This document shows positions 8,253-41,962 of a DNA stretch of 52,442 nucleotides, piece after piece (positions within the stretch are counted from its first letter, which is position 1; each line of letters starts with the position of its first letter). The notes beneath the pieces were generated by a model. That model was not told the origin of the DNA, did not search any database, and saw nothing but the letters and a program-made list of their open reading frames with translations. The stretch spans positions 1 through 52,442 of the forward strand of contig JAHCRF010000003.1 of assembly GCA_020148055.1 (NCBI GenBank), in the 5' to 3' direction. Position numbers and translations under genes: made by a program. This DNA comes from Patescibacteria group bacterium (lineage in GTDB: Bacteria > Patescibacteriota > Minisyncoccia > Minisyncoccales > JAHCRE01).

Positions 8253-8312
8253 TAATTAAAATTACCATTATCTAGTTAAAATTTCAACCATAATACGAGA
8301 AGTGTTCTCGGA

Positions 8313-12591: not shown

Positions 12592-12677
12592 TGTTTTATT
12601 TTAACAAAAATTTTTTATAGTGTATAATAAGAAAATAATCAATTAAAATCAGGTATTGATGAATTATTAACCGCCAA

Positions 12678-13274: not shown

Positions 13275-13296
13275 CTCTGGTAGGGTTTGGAAATAA

Positions 13297-13325
13297 AGCA
13301 CGGGGTCTAACCCCGTGCTTTTTTG
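13297..13325 (+). terminator. Intrinsic terminator
   Basis: agcacgggg (13297-13305) / ccccgtgct (13311-13319), loop tctaa, then tttttt. Confidence 0.75.
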
Positions 13326-13398
13326 TGGCCCCAACCGGATTTGAACCGGTGTTACCACTGTGAGAGAGTGGCGTCCTTAGCCACTAGACGATGGGGCC
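13326..13398 (-). tRNA. tRNA-Glu (anticodon CUC)
   Basis: Minus strand GGCCCCATCGTCTAGTGGCTAAGGACGCCACTCTCTCACAGTGGTAACACCGGTTCAAATCCGGTTGGGGCCA folds as a 73-nt cloverleaf: 7-bp acceptor, anticodon loop CUCUCAC, T-loop TTCAAAT. No encoded CCA. Confidence 0.9.
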
Positions 13399-13460
13399 AT
13401 AGTCGTCTCAGTCTCAAAGGACTCTTTATCTAATCTATCATAAAATTTAAGTTTCGTCTA

Positions 13461-14540: not shown

Positions 14541-14566
14541 GTCCTTAATTCATAATTCACAATTCA

Positions 14567-16312: not shown

Positions 16313-16659
16313 TATTCTTTTACGATTTGGCTTTCTAAAATCTTGATATAATGAATTTTATCTACTTTCTCAAAATTAAATTCCTTAATTAGAGTTTCAA
16401 TATTTGCTAGAGAATTTAGCTCGGCCAATTGGATTTCTAAATTTTCGTTTTCAACCGAGAACTCATTTATTTTTTTCTGAGAATTTTGAATTTTATAAGT
16501 TTCAGAGGTTAAAGCATTGAACTGGAAAATATAAAAAGCTAAGAGCGTTATTATTAAAATAAGAAATAAAACCCAAAAAACTTTTAAATTAAATCTTAGT
16601 TTTAAAGGAAGAGCGCGAATAAGTGATATGGGAAAATTTAAAATAGAACTATTATTCAT
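16312..16659 (-). CDS. ftsL: Cell division protein FtsL-like
   Basis: 115 aa with a single TM helix followed by a coiled coil. It lies between rsmH and ftsI and overlaps both neighbours. Confidence 0.55.
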   Translation of the reverse strand: MNNSSILNFPISLIRALPLKLRFNLKVFWVLFLILIITLLAFYIFQFNALTSETYKIQNSQKKINEFSVENENLEIQLAELNSLANIETLIKEFNFEKVDKIHYIKILESQIVKE

Positions 16660-17588
16660 GTTTTTTTGGCGGCTCTTAATTTTGCTGATCTTGAGCGAGG
16701 GTTAATTAATATTTCCTCTTTACTTGGTTTGATTAGTTTTTTAGTTAAAATTTTTAAAAGGCCTTTTCTTGAATTATCTCTTAAAAAATTTTTAGAAATT
16801 CTGTCTTCTAAAGAATGGAAAGAAATTATGACTAATCTTCCCTGGGGCTCTAAAATCTCCAAAGTCTGAGGCAAAGCTTTTTTAAAATTATTTAGTTCAT
16901 CATTGACAACAATTCTTAATGCCTGAAAAGTCTTTGTAGCAAAATGCCTGCGGGGAATTTTTTTCCTGTCCCGCACCGAACTTGTTCTGGTGCGGGGATA
17001 TCGATACCAAGCAGGAACTGCTTTTTTTATGATTTCTACTAATTGAAAGGTGGTTTCAATCTTTCTTATTTTTCTATTCTTAATAATTTCTTTAGCAATT
17101 TTTTTCGCAAATCTTTCTTCACCATATTCTCTTAAGATTTTTTCCAGTTTTTTTTCTGGATAATCATTTACAATTTCTTCCGCTGTCAAGATTTTTGATT
17201 TCACATTATATCTCATATCTAAAGGTTCATTTCTCAAAAAGCTAAATCCTCGACCACTTTCCTCTAAATGCCAGCTGGAGATTCCAAGATCAAACAAGAT
17301 TCCTTGAACTTTTTTAAAATTACATTTTTTAACGATCTTTTTTAAATTTGCAAAATTATCGCAAATAAGAATTGATCTTTTTTCGTATTTAGTATTTAGT
17401 ATTTTGTATTTAGGTATCTTTATTATTTCAAGGTTCCAATCAATACCAAGTACTTTTCCATGAGGTGCTATCTTTTCTAAAATTGCTAAGCTATGGCCAC
17501 CTTCCCCAGTTGTACAATCAATAAAATTTTGATTAGCTTTGGGCGCTAAATATTTTAGAACTTCTTTTTGTAAGACTGGGATATGCAT
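16656..17588 (-). CDS. rsmH: 16S rRNA (cytosine1402-N4)-methyltransferase RsmH (MraW)
   Basis: 310 aa. MHIPVLQKEVL start, DCTTGEGGHS SAM motif, FDLGISS, and SFHSLEDR. Confidence 0.95.
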   Translation of the reverse strand: MHIPVLQKEVLKYLAPKANQNFIDCTTGEGGHSLAILEKIAPHGKVLGIDWNLEIIKIPKYKILNTKYEKRSILICDNFANLKKIVKKCNFKKVQGILFDLGISSWHLEESGRGFSFLRNEPLDMRYNVKSKILTAEEIVNDYPEKKLEKILREYGEERFAKKIAKEIIKNRKIRKIETTFQLVEIIKKAVPAWYRYPRTRTSSVRDRKKIPRRHFATKTFQALRIVVNDELNNFKKALPQTLEILEPQGRLVIISFHSLEDRISKNFLRDNSRKGLLKILTKKLIKPSKEEILINPRSRSAKLRAAKKT

Positions 17589-17591
17589 ATC

Positions 17592-17682
17592 ACTTGGACC
17601 CCTTTTTCAGAAAAAGGTGTCCAACCGCCAAAAATATAAGGTGTCAAATTGCCCGGGACCTTATAACCCGTGGCAATTTGAC
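17592..17682 (-). ncRNA. Conserved structured intergenic element, copy A (between mraZ and rsmH)
   Basis: Its reverse complement is near-identical to 41122-41212. Transcript-sense reading: GTCAAATTGCCACGGGTTATAAGGTCCCGGGCAATTTGACACCTTATATTTTTGGCGGTTGGACACCTTTTTCTGAAAAAGGGGTCCAAGT. It forms two long hairpins and ends 3 nt before the rsmH ATG. Confidence 0.5.
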
Positions 17683-17693
17683 TGATTTATATT

Positions 17694-18125
17694 TTATACG
17701 CCTAACTCCTTTAGTCTTTCTGCCATATCCCCTATTTCTTTCTCTGTTTTTTCTCTATATTTTTGCCATTTCTTTTCATCCCAAATTTCTATTCTATTGG
17801 AAAGCCCAAGTAAAACTATATTCTTTTTTAAAAGGGCATATTTTTTTAAGTATTCAGGAATTAAAATTCGGCCTGATTTATCTAAATCAACATCGCAGGC
17901 TCCTGCTAACATAATTCTGGCAAAACCTCGAGCATCTAATCGGCTGGCTGGCAGCTTACTTAGTTTCTCAGACATTATTCCCCACTCTTTTAAAGGATAA
18001 ATAATTAGACAATTATCTAAACCCCTGGTAATTATTACCTTCTTTCCTAATTCTTTTCTGAATTTTGAAGGAAGAGCCAGTCTTTTTTTAGTATCTAATG
18101 TATAGCGATATTCACCAATGAACAT
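17694..18125 (-). CDS. mraZ: Transcriptional regulator MraZ
   Basis: 143 aa. MFIGEYRYTLDTKKRLALPSKFR start, two SpoVT/AbrB-like repeats, first gene of the dcw cluster. Confidence 0.95.
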   Translation of the reverse strand: MFIGEYRYTLDTKKRLALPSKFRKELGKKVIITRGLDNCLIIYPLKEWGIMSEKLSKLPASRLDARGFARIMLAGACDVDLDKSGRILIPEYLKKYALLKKNIVLLGLSNRIEIWDEKKWQKYREKTEKEIGDMAERLKELGV

Positions 18126-18145
18126 AATTTTCTAGTAAAATGAGT

Positions 18146-18214
18146 TTTCCACAAATCTAGTCAGTTATCCCACAGTTTTCCACAATTCCCCACTCTAATT
18201 CCTTTATACCCCAC
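18146..18214 (-). promoter_or_regulatory. Array of GTGGG/GTGGA direct repeats (candidate MraZ operator)
   Basis: Minus strand: GTGGGGTATA (ends at 18214), then GTGGGGAATT / GTGGAAAACT / GTGGGATAAC (18193-18164), then GTGGAAAACT (from 18152). Repeat spacing is 21, 10, 10, 21 bp. Confidence 0.6.
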
Positions 18215-18232
18215 TTCGTAACATTGAGTCAA
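18203..18232 (-). promoter_or_regulatory. Candidate mraZ (dcw) promoter
   Basis: Minus strand TTGACT (18232-18227), 18-nt spacer, TATAAA (18208-18203). It overlaps the repeat array. Confidence 0.45.
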
Positions 18233-18300
18233 ATAAAAATTGAATAGCTTTAAAATAAGATAAAACCAATTATCTTTTCCACAGAATATTCACAGTCAAT

Positions 18301-18326
18301 AAAAAAATCGCCTAAAATATAGGCGG
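18301..18326 (-). terminator. Intrinsic terminator after the 18351..19736 gene
   Basis: cgccta / taggcg 6-bp stem (18309-18325) with a 5-nt loop. A T-run follows on the minus strand (A-run 18301-18307 on the plus strand). Confidence 0.55.
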
Positions 18327-18350
18327 TTTTTGAATACTTTCTTTTTTCCC

Positions 18351-19736: not shown

Positions 19737-19784
19737 CTTATTTCATTATAAACAAAAAATTAAAAAGAAAAAAATGTAGAAAAA

Positions 19785-22361
19785 TTAAGGATTAATTATC
19801 AATTTAAATTCTCTCGGCCCAACTTCCACCCTATCTCCTCTTTTTAATTCACCTGATAATAGAGCAGAGGCTAAGCGATTTTCAACCTTATCTTGAATAA
19901 CTCTTCTCATTTCTCTGGCTCCAAAAACCGGGCTATATCCTAATTCAACGATTTTTTCTTTAAGGGGTAGGTTTATTATAAATTCAACATCTTTTTGAGC
20001 TAAATTTTTCTTTAATTTTTGAAGCAATAATTCACAAATATCTAAAAGATTTTCTTTTGTTAAGGGATAAAAGACAACTACTGCATCAAATCGATTAATA
20101 AGCTCTGGTCTAAAAATTCCTTTTTTAAAAAGAAAATCTAGAAGTTTTTCTTTCACTTCAAGCCATTCGGTTTTCTTTTTTAAAGCCTCCAAAATCACCT
20201 GATAACCGGCGTTGGAAGTAGCAATGATTATTGAATTTTTAAAATTAATCTTTCTTCCTAAGCCATCGGTCAAATGACCTTCGTCCAAAACCTGTAAAAA
20301 TAAATTTAAGATATTGGGGTGGGCTTTCTCAATCTCGTCCAATAAAATCAAAGAAAAAGGTCTTTCCCTAACCTTAGTAGTCAAAAGTCCCTCTTCTTCG
20401 ATTGAGCCAATTAATCTGGGAATATCTCTAATTGCCTGAAACTCTGACATATCAATTCTAATCATTTTTTCCTCTGATTTAAAATAAATCTCAGCCAGCG
20501 CTTTGGAAGTTTCGGTCTTCCCTACTCCGGTTGGTCCTAAAAACAAAAAGCAGCCCATTGGACCTTTCCTGACTGTAATATCAGCTCTGGCTCTTCTCAA
20601 AGCAGTAGAAATTTCCTTAACGGCCTCTTCTTGATTAATAATTCTTTTATGAATTAGTTTTTCTAAATTAAGCAAAATTCTTCTTTCTTCAGTTTCAATT
20701 TCCCCTATTGGAATTTGGGTTTTGTCAGAGATAATTCTGGCCACGTGGTCTGGCAAAACCATTTTGTGCTTAGTAAAATTAGCGACATAGACCATTATTT
20801 CATCTAAAAGGTCGATTGCTTTTTTGGGAAAAGGAATTTCTGGAAGGTATCTGGCAGAATATTTAACAATATCTCTGATAGCTGGATATGTAACAAAGAG
20901 TTTGTATTTTTTCTCGAGGAATGGAAGGAAATTTTCCAAGACCCTAATTGTTTCTCGCTCAGAAATCTCGGAAATCTCCACTTTCTCAAAATAACTTAAA
21001 GTTGCCGTATTTGGTTCAATGAATCGATGAAATCCGGGAAAATTAGTAATGGCAATAAGTTGGAAGGCAGGCCTTGGTAGATAGTGATTAATTATTCCTG
21101 AAATATCAACTACTCCTGGGCGGTGGATTGGACTAAGATAGTTATGGAAATCGTCAATCACTAAAATAACATTGCCCGCTATTATCACCTCTTTAAAAAC
21201 TGTATCAAAGATTATTTCTATCTCTTCAAAAGACTCAGCCTGGGAAAGAATAGAGACGATATCAAGAGAGACTATTCTTTTGGAATTGACTTGAGGTAGA
21301 CTTAAATTGAAAAAAGCCCTTCTGGATAATTCCTCCACGAGCTTCATTCTCCCTCCCCCTGGTTCTCCAATTAAAAGAACATTATTTATTTCTTCCCGAC
21401 TTAATATTCTTTCCATCGCCTCAAGTTCTTTTTTAAAGCCAACAATTTCTCTAAAGCTTTTACGCCTGATCACTCTTGTCCAATCAGTTGAAAATCGGTC
21501 CAGGGTCAGGGTGTAACCGGCTGCCCAATCTCTGGCAATCGAACCTTTTTTAGCCAAATTTTTGGAATCCCAGAATCTTCGCTCAGTCTCAATTTCCTCT
21601 TCCAAGTTTTCTAACCACCAGGTTAAATTCTCAATATCTTCGGCTTTAAGATTAAAATCAATCAAAATTTTTTTAAAAATCGAATTGCGTTTAGCCAAAG
21701 CAGAAATCACATCACCTATCTCAATTCTTAGATGTCCTTTTTTTTGGGCTATTTTTAAAGATTCGAAGATTAAATCCTGAAAATCTCTTCCAAATCTTGG
21801 GGACTCAGCCGAACTCCTTACAGGATGCTTTAATTCCTCTTTCAGTAATTTTTTAATTTCTTTGAAATTCAAGGTAGCCCGGGAAAAAATAAAATTCAGT
21901 TTAGAATTATCCTTTAGAAGGAAAAAAAACAAAATCGTTGAATTAATTTCTGGATGCTTTCTCGATTCAACGAATCTTAATGATTGGTAAACTGCCTTTG
22001 CTACTTCAAAACTTAAAAATTCAGCTAAATTAAATTTTTCTGGATTTAGTGCAGCTGTTTTTAAAAGTTTTACCTGTCCGTCTAAGCCCAAAAAACGAAG
22101 ATGTGGCTTTTTTAATTTTGAATTTAAAAATGCCTCTTTGAGAAAGCTTAATAAAAATAAAACCAAAAAAATTATTAAAAGGCTTAAAATTCTTTTGGTA
22201 AAAAAGTCTTCTATCCAAAAACCATATAAAAATATTAAAAAAGTAATGAAAAATAAAATAAAAAATAAAATTTTAAGAAATCTAGCATATCTAAAAGCAG
22301 GATTCCTTTCCCACTTAACTGCCCGGAAGATGGCCGCTGTTTTTAAATTAAAATTAAACAT
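19785..22361 (-). CDS. Clp/Hsp100-type AAA+ ATPase with an N-terminal membrane domain and a degenerate first Walker A
   Basis: The ORF-track start at 22388 is TTG; the first ATG is at 22361. N-terminal TM helices. D1 reads GEPGGGRMKLVEEL instead of GxPGVGKT. D2 is canonical (GPTGVGKTETSKALA, LLDEIEKAH, sensor region GAREMRR). Confidence 0.85.
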   Translation of the reverse strand: MFNFNLKTAAIFRAVKWERNPAFRYARFLKILFFILFFITFLIFLYGFWIEDFFTKRILSLLIIFLVLFLLSFLKEAFLNSKLKKPHLRFLGLDGQVKLLKTAALNPEKFNLAEFLSFEVAKAVYQSLRFVESRKHPEINSTILFFFLLKDNSKLNFIFSRATLNFKEIKKLLKEELKHPVRSSAESPRFGRDFQDLIFESLKIAQKKGHLRIEIGDVISALAKRNSIFKKILIDFNLKAEDIENLTWWLENLEEEIETERRFWDSKNLAKKGSIARDWAAGYTLTLDRFSTDWTRVIRRKSFREIVGFKKELEAMERILSREEINNVLLIGEPGGGRMKLVEELSRRAFFNLSLPQVNSKRIVSLDIVSILSQAESFEEIEIIFDTVFKEVIIAGNVILVIDDFHNYLSPIHRPGVVDISGIINHYLPRPAFQLIAITNFPGFHRFIEPNTATLSYFEKVEISEISERETIRVLENFLPFLEKKYKLFVTYPAIRDIVKYSARYLPEIPFPKKAIDLLDEIMVYVANFTKHKMVLPDHVARIISDKTQIPIGEIETEERRILLNLEKLIHKRIINQEEAVKEISTALRRARADITVRKGPMGCFLFLGPTGVGKTETSKALAEIYFKSEEKMIRIDMSEFQAIRDIPRLIGSIEEEGLLTTKVRERPFSLILLDEIEKAHPNILNLFLQVLDEGHLTDGLGRKINFKNSIIIATSNAGYQVILEALKKKTEWLEVKEKLLDFLFKKGIFRPELINRFDAVVVFYPLTKENLLDICELLLQKLKKNLAQKDVEFIINLPLKEKIVELGYSPVFGAREMRRVIQDKVENRLASALLSGELKRGDRVEVGPREFKLIINP

Positions 22362-22365
22362 GAAG

Positions 22366-22764
22366 TTAAAGTAAGATTTTAAACCCAAACCATAGTCCTG
22401 CTATTAACAAAACTGGAAGAACAATCCATCCCACAAATATAATTACTCCAAAAAGAACGACAAAAATTTCTGTTAAAATCCCAATGAATATTAAGATACT
22501 TTTCATTATTGCTCCTAAAATTCGAGAGATTAAATTGGAAAAAAAGGACTCTATGTACCTTGGGATATCAAATCCCCGACCATAGTCCCATTTATATTGT
22601 CGCCAATGAGAAAAAAAAGTTTTCAAAAGTAAAGGAATTGAAAAATAATTTAGATTAAACAAAAGAAAATTTCTCCAGCCCAGCAGGATTTCTTTTGGCA
22701 CATCAAAAAAATGCCAAACTAAATATTGAATTAAAATATTTTTAGTTAAAAAAATTTCAGCCAT
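22366..22764 (-). CDS. Small hypothetical membrane protein
   Basis: About 132 aa from ATG 22764 (the track start at 22770 is TTG). C-terminal hydrophobic helices. Confidence 0.55.
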   Translation of the reverse strand: MAEIFLTKNILIQYLVWHFFDVPKEILLGWRNFLLFNLNYFSIPLLLKTFFSHWRQYKWDYGRGFDIPRYIESFFSNLISRILGAIMKSILIFIGILTEIFVVLFGVIIFVGWIVLPVLLIAGLWFGFKILL

Positions 22765-22791
22765 TTTCAATTTTATTATAACAATAAAATT

Positions 22792-22824
22792 TAAAAATAA
22801 AAAGACCGCCTTCTCAGCGGTTCT
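22792..22824 (-). terminator. Intrinsic terminator ending the riboswitch-led operon
   Basis: Minus strand AGAACCGC-TGAGAAG-GCGGTCT followed by TTTTATTTTT. Confidence 0.65.
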
Positions 22825-22848
22825 TTGAATTAATTTTAGAAATTACAG

Positions 22849-23385
22849 TCAATGAGGCAAAAAACCAAATTTCTTTCTCCTAACCAAAGTTAGAACTGAT
22901 TCGTAGGCTCCAAAAAAAATGAAATTGTAAAATAAATCACCTAACAAACTGTTGCGGAAAAATGGCAGAGCCAAAATATAGCATTGAATCAATCCTGATA
23001 GAGTTTTTGGGTACCAGTTAGTAAATTGCCAGACCGCAAAATTTGTAATCAGAAAAAATAAAACTGAACCTGATAGACTACCGGCTAAAATGGTTTCTAG
23101 ACTTTTGTATTTTTTAATCATCAATCCTATTAAGCCAATTAAACAAAAACTTCCATAAACCGTTAACATTAATTTCCAACTATAAAAACCCAAAAAAATG
23201 TCACTCAAAAACATTGCCAAGATAGGAGCAAAAAAAGCATATTTTTTTCCTAAATAAACTCCAGAAAATAAAGCAATTGCAGCAATTGGCGTAAAATTCC
23301 AGGGATGAGGTAACAATCTGAAAGTTAAACCTAAACTTACCAAAATTACAAAGATAACAATTTTATTAATTTTATTTTTTTCCAT
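22849..23385 (-). CDS. Small polytopic membrane protein, putative vitamin (B12?) transporter of the ECF-S-like / DUF6580-like type
   Basis: 178 aa with about 5-6 TM helices and an LLPHPWNFTPIAAIALFSG motif. It is the last gene of the operon behind the candidate cobalamin riboswitch. Family assignment is from memory only. Confidence 0.5.
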   Translation of the reverse strand: MEKNKINKIVIFVILVSLGLTFRLLPHPWNFTPIAAIALFSGVYLGKKYAFFAPILAMFLSDIFLGFYSWKLMLTVYGSFCLIGLIGLMIKKYKSLETILAGSLSGSVLFFLITNFAVWQFTNWYPKTLSGLIQCYILALPFFRNSLLGDLFYNFIFFGAYESVLTLVRRKKFGFLPH

Positions 23386-23388
23386 AAT

Positions 23389-23483
23389 TTTACCCAGTTA
23401 GTACAACTTTGACATCCATAACTCAACTTTGTTGAGTTATGGGAGATTTCGCGAAGCGGGTCAAAGTTGTCCTACTGGGTTTA
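23389..23483 (-). repeat. Inverted-repeat element family 1, copy 1 (long form)
   Basis: ttta-cccagttagtacaactttgac ... gtcaaagttgtcctactggg-ttta. Internal hairpin ccataactcaac/gttgagttatgg. It fills the whole intergenic gap and its outer TTTA overlaps the TAA stop of the upstream gene. Confidence 0.7.
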
Positions 23484-23915
23484 AAATTGACTTTCAATAT
23501 ATTTCCATTCAACTGTATCACCATCCTCTAAGAAGAAACTTCCTGCCTCTAACTGAGCATACTCATTATTTACCCAGTACTGCCACCATTTATTAGATTT
23601 TGGGTCACTACCCATATTATCAATGGATTCAACAAAAACTCCTAAATCAGGATATTCTTTAAAAGAAAATTCTAAATTATTTTCCTCAGTCACTTTCTTT
23701 AATAAATCAAAAACTGTTTCTTCTCCACTTAATCTAATGTTCTCAAAATTTTTGATATTTCCTTCACTAAAATCAAGTAAAAGAGAAATTTTTATCTCTT
23801 GTTCAACTTCAATTTCCCTTGGTGAAACTCCGATTTTTGCAAAATATTGACCCACAAAAAATCCGATAATTAAAACAGCAATAATTGAAATAAAGATTTT
23901 AAGTGAAATTTTCAT
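23481..23915 (-). CDS. DUF4430 (transcobalamin-like) domain protein with an N-terminal anchor
   Basis: 144 aa. N-terminal TM/signal helix. C-terminal WWQYWVNNEYAQLEAGSFFLEDGDTVEWKY matches the DUF4430 pattern (W-Y-x-VNG...GD-x-I-x-W-x-Y). Confidence 0.7.
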   Translation of the reverse strand: MKISLKIFISIIAVLIIGFFVGQYFAKIGVSPREIEVEQEIKISLLLDFSEGNIKNFENIRLSGEETVFDLLKKVTEENNLEFSFKEYPDLGVFVESIDNMGSDPKSNKWWQYWVNNEYAQLEAGSFFLEDGDTVEWKYIESQF

Positions 23916-23924
23916 AATTTCTGA

Positions 23925-24488
23925 CTAATCACTGGAGACGGGAAGATTTGCCGGCGGAGGAATAACTTTCTTTCTTTTCTTAAGATATTTTAGCAAGAAA
24001 AATCCAATTAAACAAATCACTAAAATTCCAACTATCAACCAAGGCAAATGCCGAGAAAAAACTGCTAAAAGAGAAGCTAAAAAGATCGACTCCCCCTCCC
24101 TGACATTTAGTCTTAAAGGAATTTTCAGCCCGGGACCAACACTGAAGCTCCGGCGATCCAAAGAAGCGACTAAAACCGAGAGGTTTGTCGCTTTTTTACC
24201 TTCTTCTTTTGCTAAAACTTTAATTTTCACCTCTTTATTTTCTCCTGCCTCTAATCTGAAACTATTTGGCTCAATTTTTATCCATTCATTTAATTCATCA
24301 GAAAAAACTTGGAAAATTCCCGCTTCCTGGGAGATGTTGTAAACTAAAATTTTTGTTTTTTGGGGCTGACCGACTTTTAATTCTAAATCTAAAAAAGACG
24401 GTTTAGCTCCAATCCCAATAGCTAAAGCAGAATCAAAAAAGAAAAGAGAAAAGACAAAAAGGAAGATTATTAAGATTTTTAATCTCAT
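23925..24488 (-). CDS. Secreted beta-sandwich-like protein with a C-terminal TM anchor
   Basis: 187 aa. Signal peptide, alternating beta-strand pattern (KILVYNISQEAGIFQV, EVKIKVLAK), C-terminal TM helix and basic stop-transfer (KKRKK). Confidence 0.55.
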   Translation of the reverse strand: MRLKILIIFLFVFSLFFFDSALAIGIGAKPSFLDLELKVGQPQKTKILVYNISQEAGIFQVFSDELNEWIKIEPNSFRLEAGENKEVKIKVLAKEEGKKATNLSVLVASLDRRSFSVGPGLKIPLRLNVREGESIFLASLLAVFSRHLPWLIVGILVICLIGFFLLKYLKKRKKVIPPPANLPVSSD

Positions 24489-26236
24489 TGTTGACTTGAA
24501 ATTGCCCAGAAAGTTAAATCACCTTCCTTAATTCCTAAACCTGTCCAACTACTGGGAACAGTTAACCCGATTAACACATTTTTCTCTGACCCAGTATTAA
24601 TGACAGTACTAAATTCTGGCCAACCTAAACCATCTAAGATAATATTTTCTTTAAAAATCTGATCGCCACTGACAATTCCTTCAAGATAGATCCTAACATT
24701 ACCGGTATTTTGAATTAAAAGTTGATCACTGGCCTGAGCTCCAGGAGTTAGACGACCAAAATCAATCTGATTTTTGTCGATGACAAAAGCAATTTCTGGA
24801 GCTGGTGGAACTGGTTGGATTATCTCTACTCTTAACCCAACATTTTGACTAATTTCTTCCCCAACTAATAAATCCACCTGATTACTTCGGATATGACCTG
24901 ATTTTTCAGCATAAACTCGATAAACTCCTGGATTGTTAATGACTAAATCGGCTTCGCCATCATTATCAGTGGTAAAAATCTGCGAATTCGCATAAATTAA
25001 AGCTTCGGCTAAAGGCTTCCACTCAGAATCTTCAAAATATTCAACTTTAGCTTCTAAATTATTTCCTGGATCAACTTTTTGACTGGCTAAAGTTAATTTG
25101 GTAGGCAACCAACCCCATTCCCCAAAATACCACAAGACCTCATCCCCTGGTTCCAAACTATATTCAGCCGCCCCAATCACTGGCATCTTATAGTTAATAA
25201 AATAAAGCCAGCCAATTAAATCATGGGCTTCCTCTTCATTAATCTTTTTTAAATAAAGTCCGAAACTAGTTTCCTCAATCAAATAAGTATAACCACAGAG
25301 AACTGAGCCATTTTCAACAATATCTAAGGCAGTAGTTGCTTTTACTTTAGCGTCGCAAATATTATTATTTTTCCCTTCAATTCTTAAATAATGTAATCTG
25401 TTTATTGGATAATAATTCTGGGTTAGAGCAATCACCGCATAGGCAGTTAAAATTGGATAACCTTTGTCCTCAGAGGCAATCCATTTAAAAGAACTATCTT
25501 CTCTTTGCAAAGATTTTAAATGATCAACTGGATTTCCGTCATTTTTGGACCAATCGTAAGGATTTTGACCTAATTTATAAATTGCTGAAATTACCCAAGA
25601 ATCTGAACCAGAATCAGATTCACCACCTGGAAGATAGGGAAAGCCACCATCTTCATTTTGATTTGATTTTAAATAATCAATAGCTCCAATAATTATTGGG
25701 TCATCTGAAGAAACTCCAGCTTCCAACAGAGCCATAATGGCTGCTGCCGTATCATTAGTGTCACTGGCCCCACCAACTGCATAACTCCAGCCGCCATCTT
25801 CATTTTGATTATTCAAAATAAAATTTTTAGAATCTTGAATAATTTGATCAGAAATACTCTCTCCAGCTGAAATCAAAGCCAAAATTCCCCAGAAATCATC
25901 ATTTAATAAATCAGGAGATCCAATCTGATTATCTTGATAAAAACTTTTTAATTGGGCAAAAAAATCAATATTACCAAAAGTTCTTGGGTCTTTACCTGCA
26001 GCAGTTAAGGCTAAAATGGTTTTTTCATAATCAGTAGCTAAATTGCCAGTAACTTCTTCCAGATGATTTAAATCTAAATCTGTTTCACCAGCCGCTACCA
26101 AAGCCATGGTTATCCAGGAATCAGGAGTCTGGGCTTTAAGGTAATTTATGGTAGAAGTATTTATTTCAGCTAAACCTGGTAAAACTAACCAAAAAACTAA
26201 GGTTCCTATCAAAAAAATTAAGATTGTTCTTTTCAT
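24485..26236 (-). CDS. Secreted protein with prenyltransferase/squalene-oxidase-type repeats plus a DUF4430 domain and C-terminal Ig-like domains
   Basis: 583 aa. Signal peptide; NQNEDGGWSY and NQNEDGGFPY alpha/alpha-toroid repeats; DUF4430-like GWLYFINYKMPVIGAAEYSLEPGDEVLWYF; beta-rich C-terminus. Confidence 0.75.
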   Translation of the reverse strand: MKRTILIFLIGTLVFWLVLPGLAEINTSTINYLKAQTPDSWITMALVAAGETDLDLNHLEEVTGNLATDYEKTILALTAAGKDPRTFGNIDFFAQLKSFYQDNQIGSPDLLNDDFWGILALISAGESISDQIIQDSKNFILNNQNEDGGWSYAVGGASDTNDTAAAIMALLEAGVSSDDPIIIGAIDYLKSNQNEDGGFPYLPGGESDSGSDSWVISAIYKLGQNPYDWSKNDGNPVDHLKSLQREDSSFKWIASEDKGYPILTAYAVIALTQNYYPINRLHYLRIEGKNNNICDAKVKATTALDIVENGSVLCGYTYLIEETSFGLYLKKINEEEAHDLIGWLYFINYKMPVIGAAEYSLEPGDEVLWYFGEWGWLPTKLTLASQKVDPGNNLEAKVEYFEDSEWKPLAEALIYANSQIFTTDNDGEADLVINNPGVYRVYAEKSGHIRSNQVDLLVGEEISQNVGLRVEIIQPVPPAPEIAFVIDKNQIDFGRLTPGAQASDQLLIQNTGNVRIYLEGIVSGDQIFKENIILDGLGWPEFSTVINTGSEKNVLIGLTVPSSWTGLGIKEGDLTFWAISSQQ

Positions 26237-26519: not shown

Positions 26520-29500
26520 TTACCAAGGAACAATTTCTTTCCAAATGGGGACTGGAAATCCCATCTGAATGATGTTTGAATCTGTTGATCCGCCGAGATT
26601 AGTGGCAACTGCTTTGTAATATCTCTCAGAAAATGTTGGATTATTATCATCGCATTCCAAGGGTTGAGGAACAGAAATATTTTCACAAATGATAGTTGGA
26701 GATTCGAAAGCCACTGAGGAATCTCGCAAAACTGTGTAAGTAACTGGACCACCAGCATTAGTATAAGCAGCCTCAGTCCAGGTTAAACGAATCGTGTTGC
26801 CAACCCAGAGACCGGACAATGTAAAATTACCTGGCACGGCAATAGGAACTGAGACTTCAATGATATTGGAGGCAATTCCGTCAGGGGCATTAACATTATA
26901 GGCAAATACCTGATATTCATAAGTTTGACCATCGACAACAGTATAATCAACATAATAGATGATTGCTTCAGGATTATCTTCTCCGGGAATTTCAGCAATC
27001 TCAATCCATTCACTGGATCGACGAAAAAGTTTATAATATTCCTCATTTCCAGCATCTGTCCAATACAAGGAAACAGCAACAATATCACCAGTTGATAGAT
27101 AGAAATTTAAAGATATTTCAGAAGGATTAGGCGGTAAAGCACTACAGGCCGAAGAAGTAACTTGGGTACTAGGATCTGAAAAAACAGTATTTCCTTCTCC
27201 TGAACCTACTGCCTCAACTTTATAAACAAAAGTATTTTCTTCATCAACGATATCAAGATATCGAATGGTAGTAGCTGGTAAGCCAGCATAAATTTTAGAA
27301 AATTCTGTCTCCCCCAAAGTAATATTTTTTCTCCAGATATTAAAAGAAATAGTATAACCGGTTGGGTCTTCTCCCCATTCAATCAGAATTCTTGAGCTAT
27401 ATCCATAACAGGCAGCAGCGACGGTTATAACTGGTTTTGAAGGTGCTTCATAACAGAAGGGGGCTTCTTCAATAATAGCATCAGAAGGAATACTTTCTCC
27501 TTTCCCTACCGCTACTAAATAATATTCATAATTAATTCCACTTTCAACGTCACCATCAGCAAAAGAAGTTGTGGGAGGAGAAATATTAATAATGTTGGTG
27601 AAAGTTGCCTCACCTTCTCTCCTTTTATAAACACTCCAATATTCAGTTAAATCCTCTGGATCAAGATCCCAGCTAAGTAATAACTGAGGATTGGTTCCCT
27701 CACATTGAGGAGTAATAATTAAATTTGGTTTGGCTGGCAAACAAGAAAGAGTGGTTATAGAAAGTTCATTAGAAGGTGAACTTTCTTTATCTACCCCAAA
27801 AGCTTTGACATAGTATTTATATAATTTTTCTTGTTCAGGTGCACCAACATAGGTCGGAGCATCTAAAGGAATAACCCATCTAGGATCAGAAGTTTCGACA
27901 GCCGTGCTGGCACCTAAAGTTCCGTTGTTACCATAATTGCTACTATCTGAAGTGATCTGATTAGTTCCTTCGTCAAAATGCCAGGCGCCCCTAAGATCTG
28001 CTTCATTATCATATATTCCTTGATAATGCTTTTGGATTTCCTCAGCTTTTAAAGCTTGACCATAAATTCTGACCTCATCAATTTTGCCTTTGAAATAATA
28101 ACCCGAATAACGACCAATTCTTATTGGAGAAGTACTTGATTGTATGGTACCAGATCTTGAAGAAGAAGTTCCAGGGATACCATTTTTATACCAGAGATGT
28201 TTTGTACCATCATAGACATAGGCAATATGAGTCCAAGTATTATTTGTCACTGTAGGACCTGAACGATACACATAGTTTCCTCCGATTCTAAAGTAGGCTC
28301 TAAGATAGCCAACGTTATTAGAATAATAAATATATAATTTGTTGTAGTAATATCCATTAATATAGTCAACAATTCCTATATAACCAGAGCCAGAAGAAGG
28401 AAAACTGGGATAAATCCAAGCTTCAATACTAGTTGCATTGGCTGGTTTTAAACTATTTGGCAAACTGCCTGAGGCAGGAATACGGACATAGTCATCTACT
28501 CTATCGAACTCTAAAGCATAACTTCCTTTATCAGTGAAAGGAGAGATTCTAGTTGAATAAGTTGAAGTAGAATTATCAGGATTAGTTCGATAGACATTAT
28601 AAGAATAGGCGTTTTGACTATCTGTCCAGGTTAAAGTATTACAGGGTGTATTTTCACAACATGCAGTAGTTAAATCTGTTAAAGAAGGAGTGGTTGGTGT
28701 TAAACCACAACTATAAGTTTCGATTGATTTTGGAGCAGAAAAAGAACTTCCACCAGCTGGTCCAATTGTCTTAACCCAGTAAGTATAAGAAGCCAAGGAA
28801 GAGAGTCCCAGGTTATCCTTCCAGGTTCTGGAAGAAAATTCTGGCATATCAGAAGTAATAGTCATTATAGGAGGCTCGATGGTACTATTCCGATAAATTT
28901 CATAACTTGTAGTATTAAAAGTTGTGGCATCTGACCAAGAAATATTATTGATTGGAATAAAATTTTCACAATCAGTAATCAATAAGATAATTGAGGGAGT
29001 TGAGGGTGGGCAATAGTCAGTGGTAATAGATGCTTCTTCTGAAGGAGGACTGCTTCCGGCTTGACCATAAGCTACTACATAATAGGAATAGGTTGTATTC
29101 ACGCTTACTGCTGAATCAGAGTAAGAAGTGGCCGTTGTATTTGTAAGGAATGCCCCATTTTTATAGATCGAATAATAATCAGTATTTTCAGAAGCCTCCC
29201 AACTAAGGGTCACTTGAGGATAAGAGTCAGAGCACCAAAAAGAGGCGGTCAGATTTTGAGGTTGAGTTGGACCAAAACACTCTAAAGTAGTTACATTTAA
29301 ATGATCTGATTCAGTTGTTAGGCCATTTGGCCCAATTGCTTTTACCCAATAGGTATAAGATGTTAAGGGTAAAACATCATCGTCTGTAAGGATTCTCAAA
29401 GAAGGATCAGTGGTTTGAGCAACAGTTCCAATAAGGCCTTTATCTTCCCGATAAATTTCATAACTTTCTGTATGGATTGCGAAAGACCAGGAAATATCAA

Positions 29501-32500
29501 CTATTGGTTGGGAACCCAAACAAAGGGGGGTTAAAACTAAACCAAGTTTGGTCGGTTCACAAGTTGGCATTAGAGCTGGATCAGTGGCATTTGAAAAAGT
29601 ACTTCCTCCAGAACTAACTGCTTCTACCTGCCAAGTATATCTATTTTCAGACTGGGGCCCATGATGGGTCCAGCTTGCTTGGTAGATGGTTCCATTATTT
29701 CCATGATTAGAACTGTCAGAAACTTTAGTTCCGGATCCTTCATCAAAATGCCAAAGTCCTCTTAATACGTACGGGTCTGTTTCATCAGGATAGTTTCCTT
29801 GGTAATGTTCTGAAATTTCAGAGAGGTTTAAAGCCCGACCATAAATTCTGACCTCATCAATTTTCCCCTTAAACTGATTATCCGAATATGGGCCATCCCC
29901 AATTTTTATTGAATAATTGCCTGAGCGCATAGAACCTGTTCTTGAGCAAGGAGTTCCCTCGCTACCATTAAGATACCATCTTTGATATGAGCCGTCGTAA
30001 ACATAAACAACGTGATTCCACTGATTGTAATTTACTCTTGGTCCGTAACAGTAGTATGATCCAGAACCAGAGCTCCAATATGGATATGCTATCAACTGGC
30101 CATTGTTATTATAATTATTTATATATATTCTACTATAAGAATATCCGTTAATTCTTCCGACAATCGCACCATATCGACAATAATAATATGAAGGGCAAGG
30201 AAGAGGATAAATCCAAGCTTCTATACTAATTTGATTAGTTGATTTTAGGCTATCTGAAATCGGAACATTGACATAATCATTGTACCCATCGAAACTTAGA
30301 GCATTGCCAAATCCTCTATCAGTAAAAGGAGAAGTTACATTGGAAAGAATAGTTGTTTCAGCTATTGTATCATCCGGATTTAATCTGTTTTGATAAAGAT
30401 CATAGGAAGTAGCATTGGAACTATCGGTCCAGGTTAAATCTGCCCAGGGATAGGAACCTTGGCAATAGACTGTTGGGTCACTCAAAGTAAAAGCTCCTGG
30501 TAGGGCACAATTATAAGTAGTAATTGACTTGTAGCCCTGAGTTGATCTTATGGTGTCCAAGTATCCTACAGCCTCAACCTTATAATTATAAGTAGTCTCT
30601 GACGAAACACTGGTATCTTTCCAATTTTTTATACCAATATTATAAATTATTTTAATAGGAGTAACTTCACTATAATCTCTTCTGAAAATTTCATAACGAG
30701 TAGTGTTGGCTCCATCTGTGCTCCAGGAAAGATTGACAACCGGCTGACTAACTTCACAGCCTCTTGTTAAAGTAAGAACGGGAATAGTTGGAAGACAAGA
30801 GGGAGTGGTGATTGAAGGAATATTAGAATCAGCTGGTGGAACTCCCTTCGGGCCATTTGAGACAACTTTATAATAATAGGTGGTAGAGGTAGAAACTCCA
30901 GTATCTTTCCAAGTTCTTGAAGAAAACTCAGGGGAGTCTTTTTCAAAGGTAATTAAAAGTGAAAGCTCAGCTGCCGAAGGTCCCCGATGAATTTCATAAC
31001 TGAAAGTATTAGTCGTCTCTGTCCAGGAAAGGTTAACAACTGGCTGGCCTTCTTCACAAGTGGTTGATAAAGTTAAGGTTGAGAACGAAGGAGGTATACA
31101 ACCTACAGCTTTAATCGTCTGGCTATTTTCAGAAATGGTACTAGTTCCTCCTTTTCCGTAGGCAATGACATAGTAAGTATATTCATATCCAGTTTCTATT
31201 GCACTATCAACATAGGAGATCTCGAGTAAATTAACAATCGCTACTTCATTCCGATAAAGAGTATAATAAACAACGTTATCTGAAGGAGTCCAGGAAATAC
31301 TTATTCGAGTATCTTCGCCAACACAAAAGGCTTCAGGTTCATCTAAAACTGGAGGTGGTGAAGGAGGCACAATGGTGGCACAATCAATATCCTTAGTAAC
31401 CGAATTAGAAACTAAAGGAGGCAATGCAGGAACAATCGCCTCAACATAATAGGTATGGGTACAAACTTGCCCGGGGCAGATGTCTAGATCGAGGTAATCA
31501 ATATATGTGGTATTTGTTATTCCTATATTTTGGGCTAAGAATTCCCCTCCTCGATAAATATTATAGTGAGTTGCTTCTAAAGTAGCAGTCCAGGAAAGGC
31601 GCATGCTAAATTCCTCACAATTTGACTCAACTTTTAAAAATGGAGAACAACGTGGAATATCTATTTGCAAGACATTAGAATCTTTTCCAGCAGTCTCCCA
31701 GATTGCCTTGACATAATAAGAGATTTTCCCTCCCTGATGATAGGTATTAGCCAAGCTTTCAACCAAATTGTCATCATAACTTGTAATATTAAGAGTCTTC
31801 AAAAGTGAAAATTCAGTTTCAGCCTGGGCTTTCCGATAAATTTGATAATTTTGGATACCAAGTAATTCATTCCAAGATAAACTAACATAAGGTCCACCAG
31901 GCTCACTTGTTTTACAACTTGCTGAGACATTAAGGGTTGGTGGACAGGCTGGAGCCTCTTGAGGGATGATCTCAGAATTCTTAGTCATTCCATCCTGCCA
32001 AATAGCCCGAATAAAATAATTATAAGTGCTTGTACCAACAATGTCTGGGCCATCCTCGTAAATAGTATCGGTAGTCGAATGAATTTTTGAACCATCTCGG
32101 TAAACTTCATAGGTTGATATATCTCCTGAGACTGAACTCCAATTTAAAGTGACATAGGGACCATCGGCTTTACAAGAAGTTGTCGGAGGAGAAAGAACTG
32201 GTGGACAATAGGGAGCTAGGGCAAGAACTTCATTAGAGAAAAAAGTATCCTCTCCTCTTTCTGCTCTGATTTGATAAAGATAATTTTTATCACTATCAAT
32301 TGTGTTATCGGTATAGAAAGTATCTTTTGTAACAGCTATTTCAGTATAATTCACTTCCCCTTCAATTTTGCGCAAGACATAATAATCCGGGTCACCGAGA
32401 ATGGTCGATGTCCAAGCAAGACCGACGAAGGCTTCTGAACCAATACAATCTGGTGAAGGATCATCAAGAGTAATTGATTCTTCTAGGGCTATTAAAAAAA

Positions 32501-40019: not shown

Positions 40020-41108
40020 ATGTTTTATCAGTGTCCAAAATGTAAAAAAACTTGGCAATATCCGATTGAAAAATGCCCGGATTGTTTTTTGAAGTTAGAG
40101 CGAGTATTTTCTGAAAAAATAAAAGTGGTTGCTGTCTCTCGAGTAAATATTCCTACCCCTTTACATCCGAAAATTCCCTATTTTGTTTTACTTTTGGAGG
40201 ATGACAAAGGAAGAAAATGGGTTCAAAAATCAGTAAAAGAATATAAAGCGGGCTCTGAATTTAAAATCGAATCAACCCAAGATAAAAATGCCGTAGCTAT
40301 CTGGCGAGTAAAATATGATGTTTTAGAAGCAATCGAAAAAGTAGTCAGCTTAATTGAAAAGATAAATCCCGCTGTAAAAACCTTAATTTTACCAACCCTG
40401 ATTGCTCCCCGTCATCCCTATTTTGCCCAAAATACCAGCCCTGAGGTTTTAAACCAACTAATTAAATTTCTAATCCAAAGGGGAGTAAAAAAAGAAAATA
40501 TCAAAGTTGCTGCCCAGAGCTTTAACGATTTTCCAATTACAGCTTCGGCTAAAAAATCAAAGTTTTTATCTGTTTGTGAAAAAAATAAAGTTCAAATTTT
40601 AGATCTTTCTCAAAAAGGTTTCAAAAGACTACAACCCACCCACCGCCCTTCAATCCCCCCCACCCACCCTAAAACAGAAAATTTTATTTTTGATGTTTCA
40701 GAAGAAGTTTTCAAAAACGATTTAATAATCAATTTGCCAATTTTAAAACTTGATAAAAAAATAGGAATAAGAGGAGCCTTAGAGAACCTAACCAGGTTTC
40801 TGAACAAAGAATCCTATTTGGGCTTGAAATATCTATACGGAGAGCAAAAGTTAATCCTTTCCCTCAAAGAGGTCTTACCCGAAATTCTAACTATAGCTGA
40901 TGCCATATCAATCCAAACACCAAACACTTTTACTGCCTTTTCCGGTCTGATTTTAGCCAGTTTCAATCCCTTGAATTTAGACCGAGTAATGGCTGAAGTG
41001 GCTTTGATTGATTTGCCAGAATATTTGAAATCTGTTAATCTAAATAAAATCAAGATTGTCGGCAGAGAGATTGCTGAGGTCCAATATGATTTAAAAAGTA
41101 TGATTTAA
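40020..41108 (+). CDS. DUF35 (zinc ribbon + OB fold) - DUF362 fusion protein
   Basis: 362 aa. CPKC...CPDC ribbon followed by an OB-like segment (KVVAVSRVNIPTP...YFVLLLEDDKGRKW), as in thiolase-associated DUF35 proteins. The C-terminal roughly 250 aa are DUF362-like (KTLILPTLIAPRHPYFAQNTSPEVLNQLIKFL). Confidence 0.65.
   Translation: MFYQCPKCKKTWQYPIEKCPDCFLKLERVFSEKIKVVAVSRVNIPTPLHPKIPYFVLLLEDDKGRKWVQKSVKEYKAGSEFKIESTQDKNAVAIWRVKYDVLEAIEKVVSLIEKINPAVKTLILPTLIAPRHPYFAQNTSPEVLNQLIKFLIQRGVKKENIKVAAQSFNDFPITASAKKSKFLSVCEKNKVQILDLSQKGFKRLQPTHRPSIPPTHPKTENFIFDVSEEVFKNDLIINLPILKLDKKIGIRGALENLTRFLNKESYLGLKYLYGEQKLILSLKEVLPEILTIADAISIQTPNTFTAFSGLILASFNPLNLDRVMAEVALIDLPEYLKSVNLNKIKIVGREIAEVQYDLKSMI
40627..40670 (+). 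repeat. C-rich repeat family 3, copy Y (in-frame inside the DUF362 part)
   Basis: gactacaacccacccaccgcccttcaatcccccccacccaccct encodes RLQPTHRPSIPPTHP. It is a sharp GC/C island in an AT-rich gene. Confidence 0.6.
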
Positions 41109-41121
41109 AAAATTAAAAATA

Positions 41122-41212
41122 GTCGCGAAGCCACGGGTTATAAGGTCCCGGGCGAGCGACACCTTTAAGTTTTTAGCGGTTGGACACCTTTTTCTGAAAA
41201 AGGGGTCCAAGT
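41122..41212 (+). ncRNA. Conserved structured intergenic element, copy B (upstream of fabG)
   Basis: GTCGCGAAGCCACGGGTTATAAGGTCCCGGGCGAGCGACACCTTTAAGTTTTTAGCGGTTGGACACCTTTTTCTGAAAAAGGGGTCCAAGT. Same architecture as copy A with compensatory changes in the basal stem. It ends 6 nt before the fabG ATG. Confidence 0.5.
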
Positions 41213-41218
41213 AGAATT

Positions 41219-41962
41219 ATGTATAACTTCAAAAACAAAGTAGTCCTAATTACCGGCGCTGCCCAAGGAATAGGAAAGGCGATTTCTCTAAAATTTGCCT
41301 CATTTGGAGCAAAATTGGCTCTAAATGACATTTTTACTCAGGAAGAAAATCTAAAAAAAGTGATTTCAGAAATCGGAGAAAAAAGTGAAGCACGCTATTT
41401 TTTAGCCGATGTTTCCAAATTAGAGGAGGTGAAAAAAATGATTCAAGATATTAAAAAAGAATTTGGCAGATTAGATGTTTTGGTCAATAATGCTGGAATC
41501 ATCCGGGATAGAACCTTAGCTAAAATGACAAAAGAAGAATGGCAGAAAGTTATTGATGTTGATTTAACCGGGATTTTCAACTGCTCCAAAACGGCCCTAC
41601 CTCTTCTTGTTCCAAATCAGGGGAAAATTATTAATATCTCCTCGGTTGTTGGTCAAAGAGGAAATTTTGGTCAGACAAATTATGCTGCAGCAAAAGCTGG
41701 AGTAATTGGCTTCACTAAAGCCCTGAGCAAAGAGGTGGGAAGATTTGGAGTGAGGGTCAACGCCATCGCGCCCGGTTTCATTGAAACAAAAATGGCTGAA
41801 GGAGTTCCTGATAAAATGAAAACTATAATCAAACAACTAACTTCTCTCGGTAGATTTGGAAAACCAGAAGAGGTTGCTAATGCTGTAATATTTTTAGCCT
41901 CAGATGAAGCCAGCTTTATTACCGGCGCAATTCTGAATCTTGATGGTGGATTGGCAATCTAA
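41219..41962 (+). CDS. fabG: 3-oxoacyl-(ACP/CoA) reductase, SDR family
   Basis: 247 aa. TGAAQGIG cofactor motif, NNAGI, catalytic S...YAAAK, and a typical FabG C-terminus (ITGAILNLDGGLAI). Confidence 0.9.
   Translation: MYNFKNKVVLITGAAQGIGKAISLKFASFGAKLALNDIFTQEENLKKVISEIGEKSEARYFLADVSKLEEVKKMIQDIKKEFGRLDVLVNNAGIIRDRTLAKMTKEEWQKVIDVDLTGIFNCSKTALPLLVPNQGKIINISSVVGQRGNFGQTNYAAAKAGVIGFTKALSKEVGRFGVRVNAIAPGFIETKMAEGVPDKMKTIIKQLTSLGRFGKPEEVANAVIFLASDEASFITGAILNLDGGLAI

Follow-up and report, generated by a model that had tools for sequence, protein, structure and literature searches.

A Probable New Family of Small, Modular, Hairpin-Forming Interspersed Repeats in Patescibacteria

Introduction

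A structured element that occurs twice in a 52,442-nucleotide stretch of a Patescibacteria genome (hereafter the window) probably belongs to a hitherto undescribed family of small, modular repeats that form hairpins and are interspersed in the genomes of Patescibacteria (CPR). Its members are about 105 nt in length, with long forms of about 165 nt, and they would be non-autonomous and probably mobile. The copies are dispersed, lie in random orientation, preserve their hairpins by compensatory changes, have a mosaic architecture, and occur at sites for which both filled and empty alleles exist. An initial annotation of the window had interpreted the two copies as a cis-regulatory RNA controlling two genes or, as a fallback, as a recently spread non-autonomous element that lacks terminal inverted repeats. 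The first interpretation is not borne out, since the element is found at many unrelated positions in both orientations and is absent from the same junctions in close and syntenic relatives. The element is not a switch dedicated to fabG or rsmH. The fallback interpretation, in contrast, fits both the dispersal of the copies and the existence of filled and empty alleles.

Results

Two copies of the element in the window

The initial annotation aligned positions 41122–41212 along their full length with the reverse complement of positions 17592–17682, and we reproduced this alignment. The identical blocks that it contains, CCACGGGTTATAAGGTCCCGGGC and GGTTGGACACCTTTTTCTGAAAAAGGGGTCCAAG, were located at exactly two places each in the 52-kb window and in none of 100 shuffles. 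Both copies (Table 1) are indeed sense to the downstream gene, ending 3 nt (rsmH) or 6 nt (SDR/FabG-like gene) before the ATG. The extent of 91 nt given for the element needs correction at one end: the alignment is real, but the unit is longer on its 5′ side by an A-rich 11–13 nt. Because this A-rich stretch (41109–41121; 17683–17693) is similar in both copies, is missing from an empty mraZ|rsmH allele (see below), and is predicted to pair with the linker, we consider the unit to be about 105 nt in length and to fill the whole gap from stop codon to start codon. The linker of copy B contains ACACCTT, which repeats the 5′ arm of hairpin 2, then a pentamer of variable sequence, a T-run, and GGNGG.

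Table 1. Coordinates of the two element copies and of their flanking genes in the window.
Feature	Coordinates	Strand	Remarks
Copy B, whole unit	41109..41212	+	Starts directly after the DUF362 stop codon (TAA); ends 6 nt short of the SDR/FabG-like ATG
Copy B, A-rich 5′ leader AAAATTAAAAATA	41109..41121	+	Tentative pairing with U-rich linker (helix P0); similar to copy A
Copy B, hairpin 1	41122..41160	+	Stem GTCGC/GCGAC, G/A-rich internal loop, apex; −20.4 kcal/mol; covariation
Copy B, linker ACCTTTAAGTTTTTAGCGG	41161..41179	+	Based on alignment of 13 copies
Copy B, hairpin 2 TTGGACACCTTTTT-CTG-AAAAAGGGGTCCAA	41180..41210	+	−14 kcal/mol; conserved A.G mismatch
DUF362 protein gene	40020..41108	+	Upstream of copy B
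Short-chain dehydrogenase (FabG-like) gene	41219..41962	+	Downstream of copy B; Pfam adh_short_C2, E 9e-72
Copy A, whole unit	17592..17693	-	From mraZ TAA to 3 nt before rsmH ATG
Copy A, hairpin 1	17643..17682	-	Continuous 11-bp basal stem GTCAAATTGCC/GGCAATTTGAC
Copy A, hairpin 2	17594..17624	-	Identical to copy B hairpin 2
mraZ	17694..18125	-	Upstream of copy A; Pfam MraZ, E 3e-39
rsmH (MraW methyltransferase)	16656..17588	-	Downstream of copy A; Pfam Methyltransf_5, E 2.6e-99

The AAGGGG tract in hairpin 2 had also been singled out as the only purine-rich tract that resembles a Shine-Dalgarno (SD) motif. The tract is present, but this argument carries little weight: SD-like motifs are missing within 25 nt of the start in most of the window's 44 larger ORFs, and empty fabG alleles have only A/T before the ATG. 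Leaders in the window are A/T-rich, and many genes overlap or are separated by 1–10 nt.

Both hairpins fold, and their pairing is maintained

As the initial annotation proposed, hairpins 1 and 2 fold in both window copies (−37.7 kcal/mol, z −3.5, and −41.8 kcal/mol, z −5.5, relative to shuffled controls). Hairpin 1 has a common apex consisting of GCC-A-CGGG, the loop UUAUAAGGU, and CCCG-GGC, which rests on basal stems that differ in the manner claimed. That of copy A is A/T-rich and 11 bp in length, whereas copy B has GTCGC-GAA-GCC/GGC-GA-GCGAC, forming a 5-bp G/C stem and a G/A-rich internal loop with 5′ GAA opposite 3′ GA.

The claim of compensatory changes in hairpin 1 holds on a larger sample, as 9 of 15 pairs are altered on both sides among the seven copies with the common apex. 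In the alignment of these copies, which was registered by hand and hence is biased towards structure, 93% of hairpin-1 cells are paired, compared to 77% in shuffles (0 of 500 reach 93%) and 18–54% when the 3′ partner is slid out of register. Moreover, the hairpin-2 variants UUUCUU/AAGAAA and UUUCUC/GAGAAA found in Logan contigs carry changes in both arms. Given that hairpin-1 pairing exceeds that of shuffles and slid registers, and that the hairpin-2 variants are two-sided, pairing is under selection or is needed for propagation. The two strands fold almost equally well (hairpin 2, −14 versus −13.6 kcal/mol; hairpin 1, −20.4 versus −17.7 kcal/mol).

Helix P0, formed by the A-rich leader and the U-rich linker, is predicted to enclose hairpin 1 in both window copies (copy B fold −24.3 kcal/mol, z −3.4). 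In most copies P0 pairing did not exceed that of composition-matched shuffles, and we include this helix in the fold only tentatively. A pseudoknot between the hairpin-1 loop UAUAAGGU and ACCUUAUA, with 8 bp in three copies, was considered and dropped, as ACCUU is equally conserved in copies that lack the loop and the geometry is impossible with a full stem.

An invariant core within a mosaic architecture

A scan for exact matches to the hairpin-2 pattern in one genome per species hit contigs from three Patescibacteria MAGs, namely a "Patescibacteria group" bin, a Saccharibacteria bin, and an Uhrbacteria bin, each with one matching contig, as well as a chance hairpin in Desulfovibrio. The same pattern matched 11 contigs from metagenomes. 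After near-identical strains were collapsed, these searches yielded 11 distinct further copies, all with the same architecture, for a total of 13 when the window pair is included.

In the alignment of the 13 copies, all carry a core composed of T5-6 GG(C/A)GGTT, followed by GGACACCTTTTT-loop-AAAAAGGGGTCC and an A, with the loop sequence being free. The A.G mismatch of hairpin 2 is retained everywhere but in L004a, which has a GGGGCCC arm, and (G)ACACCTT is located directly 3′ of hairpin 1 in most copies. This hairpin-2 core is near-invariant across Saccharibacteria, Uhrbacteria, and other Patescibacteria. Hairpin 1 is far more variable: the apex common to seven copies is mounted on at least five different basal stems, hairpin 1 of L007 is extended, and unrelated hairpins take its place in L004a, L004b, L005, L011, and L015. 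The long forms (L002 and L016, about 165 nt) begin with an additional 5′ hairpin, H0 CTCGAGAACCTTTTACTAAAAGGATCTCGAA (L002:4340-4400; L016:3781-3835), which the core covariance model scores as a diverged linker plus hairpin-2 module (31 bits, E 1.6e-5). The two window copies represent different hairpin-1 subtypes and are 85% alike, and their likeness to copies in other organisms reaches up to 89%. Since they are no closer to each other than to foreign copies, a simple recent duplication within the window genome is argued against.

Two contigs have further peculiarities. On the Saccharibacteria contig L004, hairpins with the stem TCATTTCTT/AAGAAATGA form a local family around rplJ–rplL (2405-2445, 2655-2690, 3283-3410); two of them act as hairpin 1 for copies of the element, and one is solitary, directly before the rplJ start. 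In L007 (1845-1873), the extended hairpin 1 reaches into the end of recA, its 5′ arm taking in the final codons and the stop codon, and a 13-bp pairing between the recA coding sequence and the element linker is predicted (−17 kcal/mol, z −4.8).

Terminal inverted repeats are lacking, as the initial annotation had stated: the ends of the short form do not match, and the long forms have only a TTGGA-type resemblance of 5–8 nt. Likewise, no conserved target tetra- or pentanucleotide and no flanking motif was found, the flanks at both ends differing among the 13 copies.

Copies lie in random orientation beside unrelated genes

Many copies in random orientations and positions was the pattern that, according to the initial annotation, would mark a simple repeat and refute its regulatory reading, and this is the pattern observed. 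Five of the 13 copies are sense to both neighbours: copy A (mraZ>rsmH), copy B (DUF362>fabG), L011 (>rplJ), L004a (upstream of rplJ), and L004b (rplJ>rplL). Six are antisense to the surrounding transcription, either with respect to both neighbouring genes (L002, MFS>PolX; L008, rplI>pyrG; L010, ftsL>ftsI; L015) or inside insertions of 16S rRNA genes (L005/L006; L016). The remaining two lie between convergent genes (L007, recA> <rpsR; L012, <dnaB). Neighbours outside the window are unrelated and comprise MFS/PolX, recA/rpsR, rplI/pyrG, ftsL/ftsI, dnaB, rplJ, rplL, and a glycosyltransferase. Copies were seen only in spacers and intron loops, and many of them, including several antisense ones, begin 0–7 nt past a stop codon when read in the transcribed sense.

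Two copies reside in group I introns of 16S rRNA genes

The rRNA insertions of L005 and L016 match Intron_gpI below threshold yet significantly (45 bits, E 2.6e-10, and 32 bits, E 2.2e-6, respectively). The intron sites differ, one following ...CTCTGT(G) near E. coli position 515 and the other following ...GCATGGTT near position 1057, and the two insertions (L005:1731-2363; L016:3552-3935) have only the element in common. In each intron, the element starts 4 nt past the 5′ exon junction, between the splice site and a candidate internal guide sequence (GCAGAG in L005). This position corresponds to the P1 loop, where inserts are tolerated. The L016 16S gene has a further insertion near position 1390, with a match to group II intron domains D1-D4 downstream (L016:2761-2857). 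Group I intron-like insertions are known to be abundant in CPR rRNA genes (PMC11270868), and the abstract and outline of that report make no mention of the present element.

Filled and empty sites

The mraZ–rsmH junction carries the element in the window and lacks it in relatives. L010 has the same dcw cluster with a mraZ–rsmH gap of 6 nt, and its copy is placed instead, in antisense orientation, at the junction of ftsL with ftsI, two genes whose window counterparts overlap (TAATG). L017 and L022, whose RsmH proteins are 67–71% identical, are syntenic over about 20 kb and have a gap of 1–2 nt; the core covariance model found no copy in 88 kb of such relatives. Among contigs from the sediment metagenomes that contain the window organism, one skips from 17593 to 17694 with only "CC" between, giving TAA-GG-GTGAT-ATG, and two more skip variants exist.

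Gene order over window positions 7308–26236 is conserved in L017 and L022, which are two Patescibacteria MAGs, and includes DUF4430, DUF6580, ClpB-like, mraZ, rsmH, ftsL, ftsI, Mur ligase, metallophosphatase, P-type ATPase, Na/Ca exchanger, and RmuC genes. RsmH relatives include "Patescibacteria group" and "Ca. Nealsonbacteria" organisms. Three other relatives with 70% identical RsmH (L019:9676-10000, L020, L021) have a mraZ–rsmH gap of 325 nt in which another direct repeat, about 115 nt in length and unrelated to the element, is located (AACCGATTGCCAAATACGAATTTACCGAAACTGG...GGGCAATCGGCTACGAATCAATAT), and for this reason the junction seems to be a hotspot for repeat insertion.

At the fabG site, sediment metagenome contigs that are 89–96% identical to the window skip from 41111/41112 to 41217/41218 and carry an A/T spacer of 20–22 nt in place of the element. 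An upstream haplotype at this site, defined by 8 shared differences in 47 nt, carries the element in run X3, where the 91 nt of the inserted sequence show 0 differences, but is empty in run X5. The existence of one haplotype in both states indicates recent gain, loss, or exchange. No clear target-site duplication is visible in three comparisons of filled and empty sites, for which AT-rich spacers limit the resolution.

The element is also over-represented in the source metagenome, a marine-sediment site sampled by runs X1 and X2. In run X1, assembler depth is about 290–350 over the element and 22–42 in its flanks, an excess of about 7-fold that is not assignable to one genome, and contigs consisting only of the element run into many different flanks. 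In roughly 18 additional runs, which derive from sediments, groundwater, anchialine caves, and a vent, only 6–10% of the sampled words are present, and this signal is probably the element itself. Copy number within genomes appears low, with two copies in the 52-kb window and a single matching contig for each MAG.

About 50 nt of the FabG-like gene (window:41448-41516) draw very high depth from unrelated contigs in every metagenome at 80% likeness, which presumably reflects a conserved SDR motif, not a repeat. On the minus strand, window:26520-32570 is an ORF of 2016 aa with internal repeats about 1.8 kb apart (for example, 28048-28116 versus 29827-29895, 83% identical) that probably encodes a large repetitive surface protein.

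Searches for known families and rejected candidates

The initial annotation had recommended a search of Rfam, and no family was found at gathering score (Rfam 15), the sole match to the window or the copies being one expected by chance (E 2.6). The same outcome was obtained with both gathering and permissive thresholds for the window, the region of both copies, and all loci. A match of His_leader to the long form (28.5 bits, gathering score 49) was attributed to chance. No element copy was found in viral contigs or in phage and plasmid collections; no RNA run is among the runs listed as containing the element; and the 30 window ORFs that were scanned include no transposase, integrase, or homing endonuclease. 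Neither the window nor the viral, phage, and plasmid sets contained a related autonomous element. A full-text literature search for MITE or REP elements in Patescibacteria returned nothing comparable.

Several other interpretations were considered and rejected. The element is not coding, as reading frames differ between copies, and a protein database search for spurious ORFs across it found none. A promoter in the linker was discarded because −35/−10 hexamers are inconsistent by inspection and scan sites are no more numerous than in shuffles. An intrinsic, possibly bidirectional, terminator was discarded because the T-run starts about 8 nt after hairpin 1, no T-run follows hairpin 2, and a terminator scan is silent. 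Mimicry of the 16S 3′ end was examined by comparing GCGGUUGGAUCACCU with the 16S 3′ end of L006, and only GGA-CACCU is common to both, as expected for any anti-SD-like strand. Similarly, an attC-like reading related to integrons (GTTRRRY / RYYYAAC) fails because its boxes stand in the reverse order to those of attC and the resemblance is no greater than chance allows. The idea of a parS-like site was abandoned because the GC skew near 33 kb, used as an origin test, merely follows the gene strand.

Discussion

Several features argue that the element is an interspersed repeat. Its distribution is sporadic, its core is near-invariant across distant CPR classes, its orientation is random, it is present or absent as a whole unit between near-identical haplotypes, it is covered in excess depth, and its modules are combined in mosaic fashion. 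There are also findings that speak against a mobile repeat. The difference between empty and filled sites is not a clean cut-and-paste, in that the surrounding AT-rich spacer differs too, and the apparent copy number is low. The lack of terminal inverted repeats, of a clear target duplication, of a conserved target motif, and of a transposase among the scanned window ORFs points the same way. Furthermore, a functional RNA or a protein-binding site would also exhibit strong covariation in hairpin 1 and a core conserved across CPR classes beyond the expectation for neutral DNA.

Interspersed repeats of bacteria include REP/BIME and BOX elements, Rickettsia palindromic elements (RPEs), and MITEs. 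The REP/BIME sequences of Enterobacteria and Pseudomonas are likewise short extragenic imperfect palindromes that occur in either orientation, often just past stop codons. They too have mosaic units without inverted ends or target duplications, preserve hairpins by compensatory change, and have side effects on mRNA stability and translation. The CPR element shares with them the character of an extragenic imperfect palindrome with conserved pairing. However, REPs are about 35 nt in length, have a GTAG head, number in the hundreds, and are accompanied by a RAYT gene, whereas the CPR element is about 105 nt in length, has two or three different hairpins and a low apparent copy number, and no RAYT was seen among the scanned window ORFs. 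RPEs are comparable in being structured repeats of 100–150 nt in small, reduced genomes, with a sporadic distribution that extends to RNA genes, presence or absence between close relatives, and no known transposase. Nevertheless, RPEs often insert in frame into protein genes, and their sequences are unrelated.

MITEs such as Correia/NEMIS, RUP, and ERIC are small, non-autonomous, and dispersed, exhibit insertion polymorphism, and can bring hairpins or terminators near genes. Dispersed copies with presence/absence polymorphism are found here as well, but MITEs are defined by terminal inverted repeats and target-site duplication, neither of which was found in the CPR element. Analogies may also be drawn to the ends of IS200/IS605 elements and to ORF-less PATEs, which also lack inverted ends and duplications and whose subterminal hairpins are recognized. 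By the same analogy, the two similar, like-oriented hairpins H0 and hairpin 2 at the ends of the long forms would resemble IS200/IS605 ends, and a hairpin covering a purine tract just 5′ of an ATG is reminiscent of the IS200 left end, where a terminator hairpin is followed by an SD-occluding stem-loop. However, the CPR element has no conserved 4–5 nt target at one end, hairpins 1 and 2 of its short form are dissimilar, and no Y1 transposase was found among the scanned window ORFs.

These comparisons suggest how the family might propagate. The invariant part consists of the T-run, GG(C/A)GGTT, and hairpin 2 with its 14-bp arms, preceded by a hairpin 1 whose sequence varies freely as long as it pairs, and sometimes by H0, the degenerate core copy, as a first module. 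New intergenic spacers and intron loops would acquire units in either orientation, and units would spread between lineages. A trans-acting enzyme may recognize hairpin 2 and the linker, possibly as single-stranded DNA in the manner of IS200/IS605 and RAYT proteins, and may insert the unit without inverted ends or target duplication. A single-strand mechanism that recognizes hairpins is our best guess because inverted ends and duplications are lacking, because the element relies on hairpins, and because the long forms carry two like-oriented core hairpins at their ends. At the two window sites, a structured block of 105 nt would have replaced a native spacer of a few to about 25 nt, thus placing a stable hairpin beside the start codons of genes that otherwise would initiate from unstructured A/U-rich leaders. 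The −14 kcal/mol hairpin located 3–6 nt before the AUG is most likely a side effect of insertion, and any influence on rsmH or fabG a by-product.

A more daring proposal, to which we assign only a slim chance, is that the invariant core (the T-run, GGNGGTT, and hairpin 2 with its A.G mismatch) is recognized by a CPR-specific machine that has yet to be described. Such a machine might carry out hairpin-directed transposition or recombination that needs no inverted ends, or it might be a conserved factor that binds RNA and whose targets extend to group I introns of rRNA. If so, the element would be a mobile, structure-defined cassette that is tolerated or exploited in operon spacers and in intron P1 loops.

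Alternatively, the element could be a portable RNA module that is useful to the host in any transcript that carries it, for example by stabilizing 3′ ends or blocking exonucleases, by offering a site for RNase processing, or by insulating operons, with the core bound by a conserved CPR protein. Roles of this kind have been proposed for REP and BOX elements. Such a module may still have been inserted, and we regard this alternative as unlikely rather than implausible. It would account for hairpins that are kept by compensatory change, including the UUUCUU/AAGAAA variants of hairpin 2, and a core that hardly differs between Saccharibacteria, Uhrbacteria, and other Patescibacteria would agree with a site bound by protein. 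Starts 0–7 nt past a stop codon in several antisense copies, the nearly equal folding of both strands, and the tolerance of the element within rRNA introns are also in its favour. However, the element is sporadic and missing from close and syntenic relatives, including 88 kb of related genomes, and thus no gene depends on it. Nor does it form a canonical intrinsic terminator, given a T-run about 8 nt past the stem and a silent scan.

It is highly improbable that the element functions at the DNA level, with the palindrome TTGGAC(A/C)CCTTTTT-N3-AAAAAGG(G/T)GTCCAA acting as an operator, or as a site of the partition or recombination type, to which a dimeric protein binds. A palindrome of this sort would be insensitive to orientation by nature, and its 14-bp inverted arms, free spacer sequence, orientation-independent placement, and few copies that are highly conserved across lineages would be in accord with such a site. 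Yet the palindrome is invariably accompanied by an asymmetric linker and a second hairpin, and sites either contain the entire 105-nt block or lack all of it. The palindrome is also found inside rRNA introns, and it is absent from most relatives. Its A.G asymmetry is kept in all aligned copies but one and in the ends of variant contigs, and the two-sided arm variants fit a hairpin equally well.

We give still less credence to a cis-regulatory leader (a riboswitch, thermometer, or protein-binding 5′ UTR) that would gate initiation of rsmH and fabG by sequestering AAGGGG in hairpin 2. Both window copies are sense and end 3–6 nt before an ATG, the upstream ACACCTT could pair alternatively with the hairpin-2 3′ arm, and L011 and L004b are also sense and directly 5′ of rplJ and rplL. 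The window copies moreover resemble SD-sequestering leaders (fourU/ROSE elements and riboswitch platforms) in that a U-rich strand pairs with a purine tract by the start codon. Those leaders, however, are always sense, tied to gene families, and conserved in orthologues. A gene-specific leader fails here because consistent sense orientation, gene linkage, and conservation in orthologues are all lacking: 6 of the 13 copies are antisense (two of them in rRNA introns) and two more are between convergent genes, the downstream genes are unrelated, and the element is absent at both junctions in relatives. The lack of an Rfam match and the scarcity of SD motifs in the window genome also weigh against it, as does the finding that in L004, L005, L011, and L015 the place of hairpin 1, which would have to be the sensor, is taken by unrelated hairpins. 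Least probable of all is an independent small-RNA gene at variable loci, for although the element is compact, stable, about 100 nt in length, and conserved in structure, neither of its sides has a conserved promoter, its 3′ end in the forward sense does not resemble a terminator, its coding flanks lie within 0–13 nt, and it is absent from relatives and sits inside introns.

If the element is a repeat, as we consider probable, one false riboswitch candidate is removed. Patescibacteria have tiny, tightly packed genomes in which few mobile elements have been recognized. The family is apparently the first small interspersed structured repeat to be described in this group; elements of its kind are known, and the family itself appears to be new. 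It marks recent gene flow among distant CPR lineages, and it indicates that operon junctions and the loops of rRNA introns accept inserts of 100 nt. The element will also mislead those who hunt for motifs, and it will break assemblies. Its mobilizing enzyme, if found, could represent a new system of mobilization that operates without inverted repeats.
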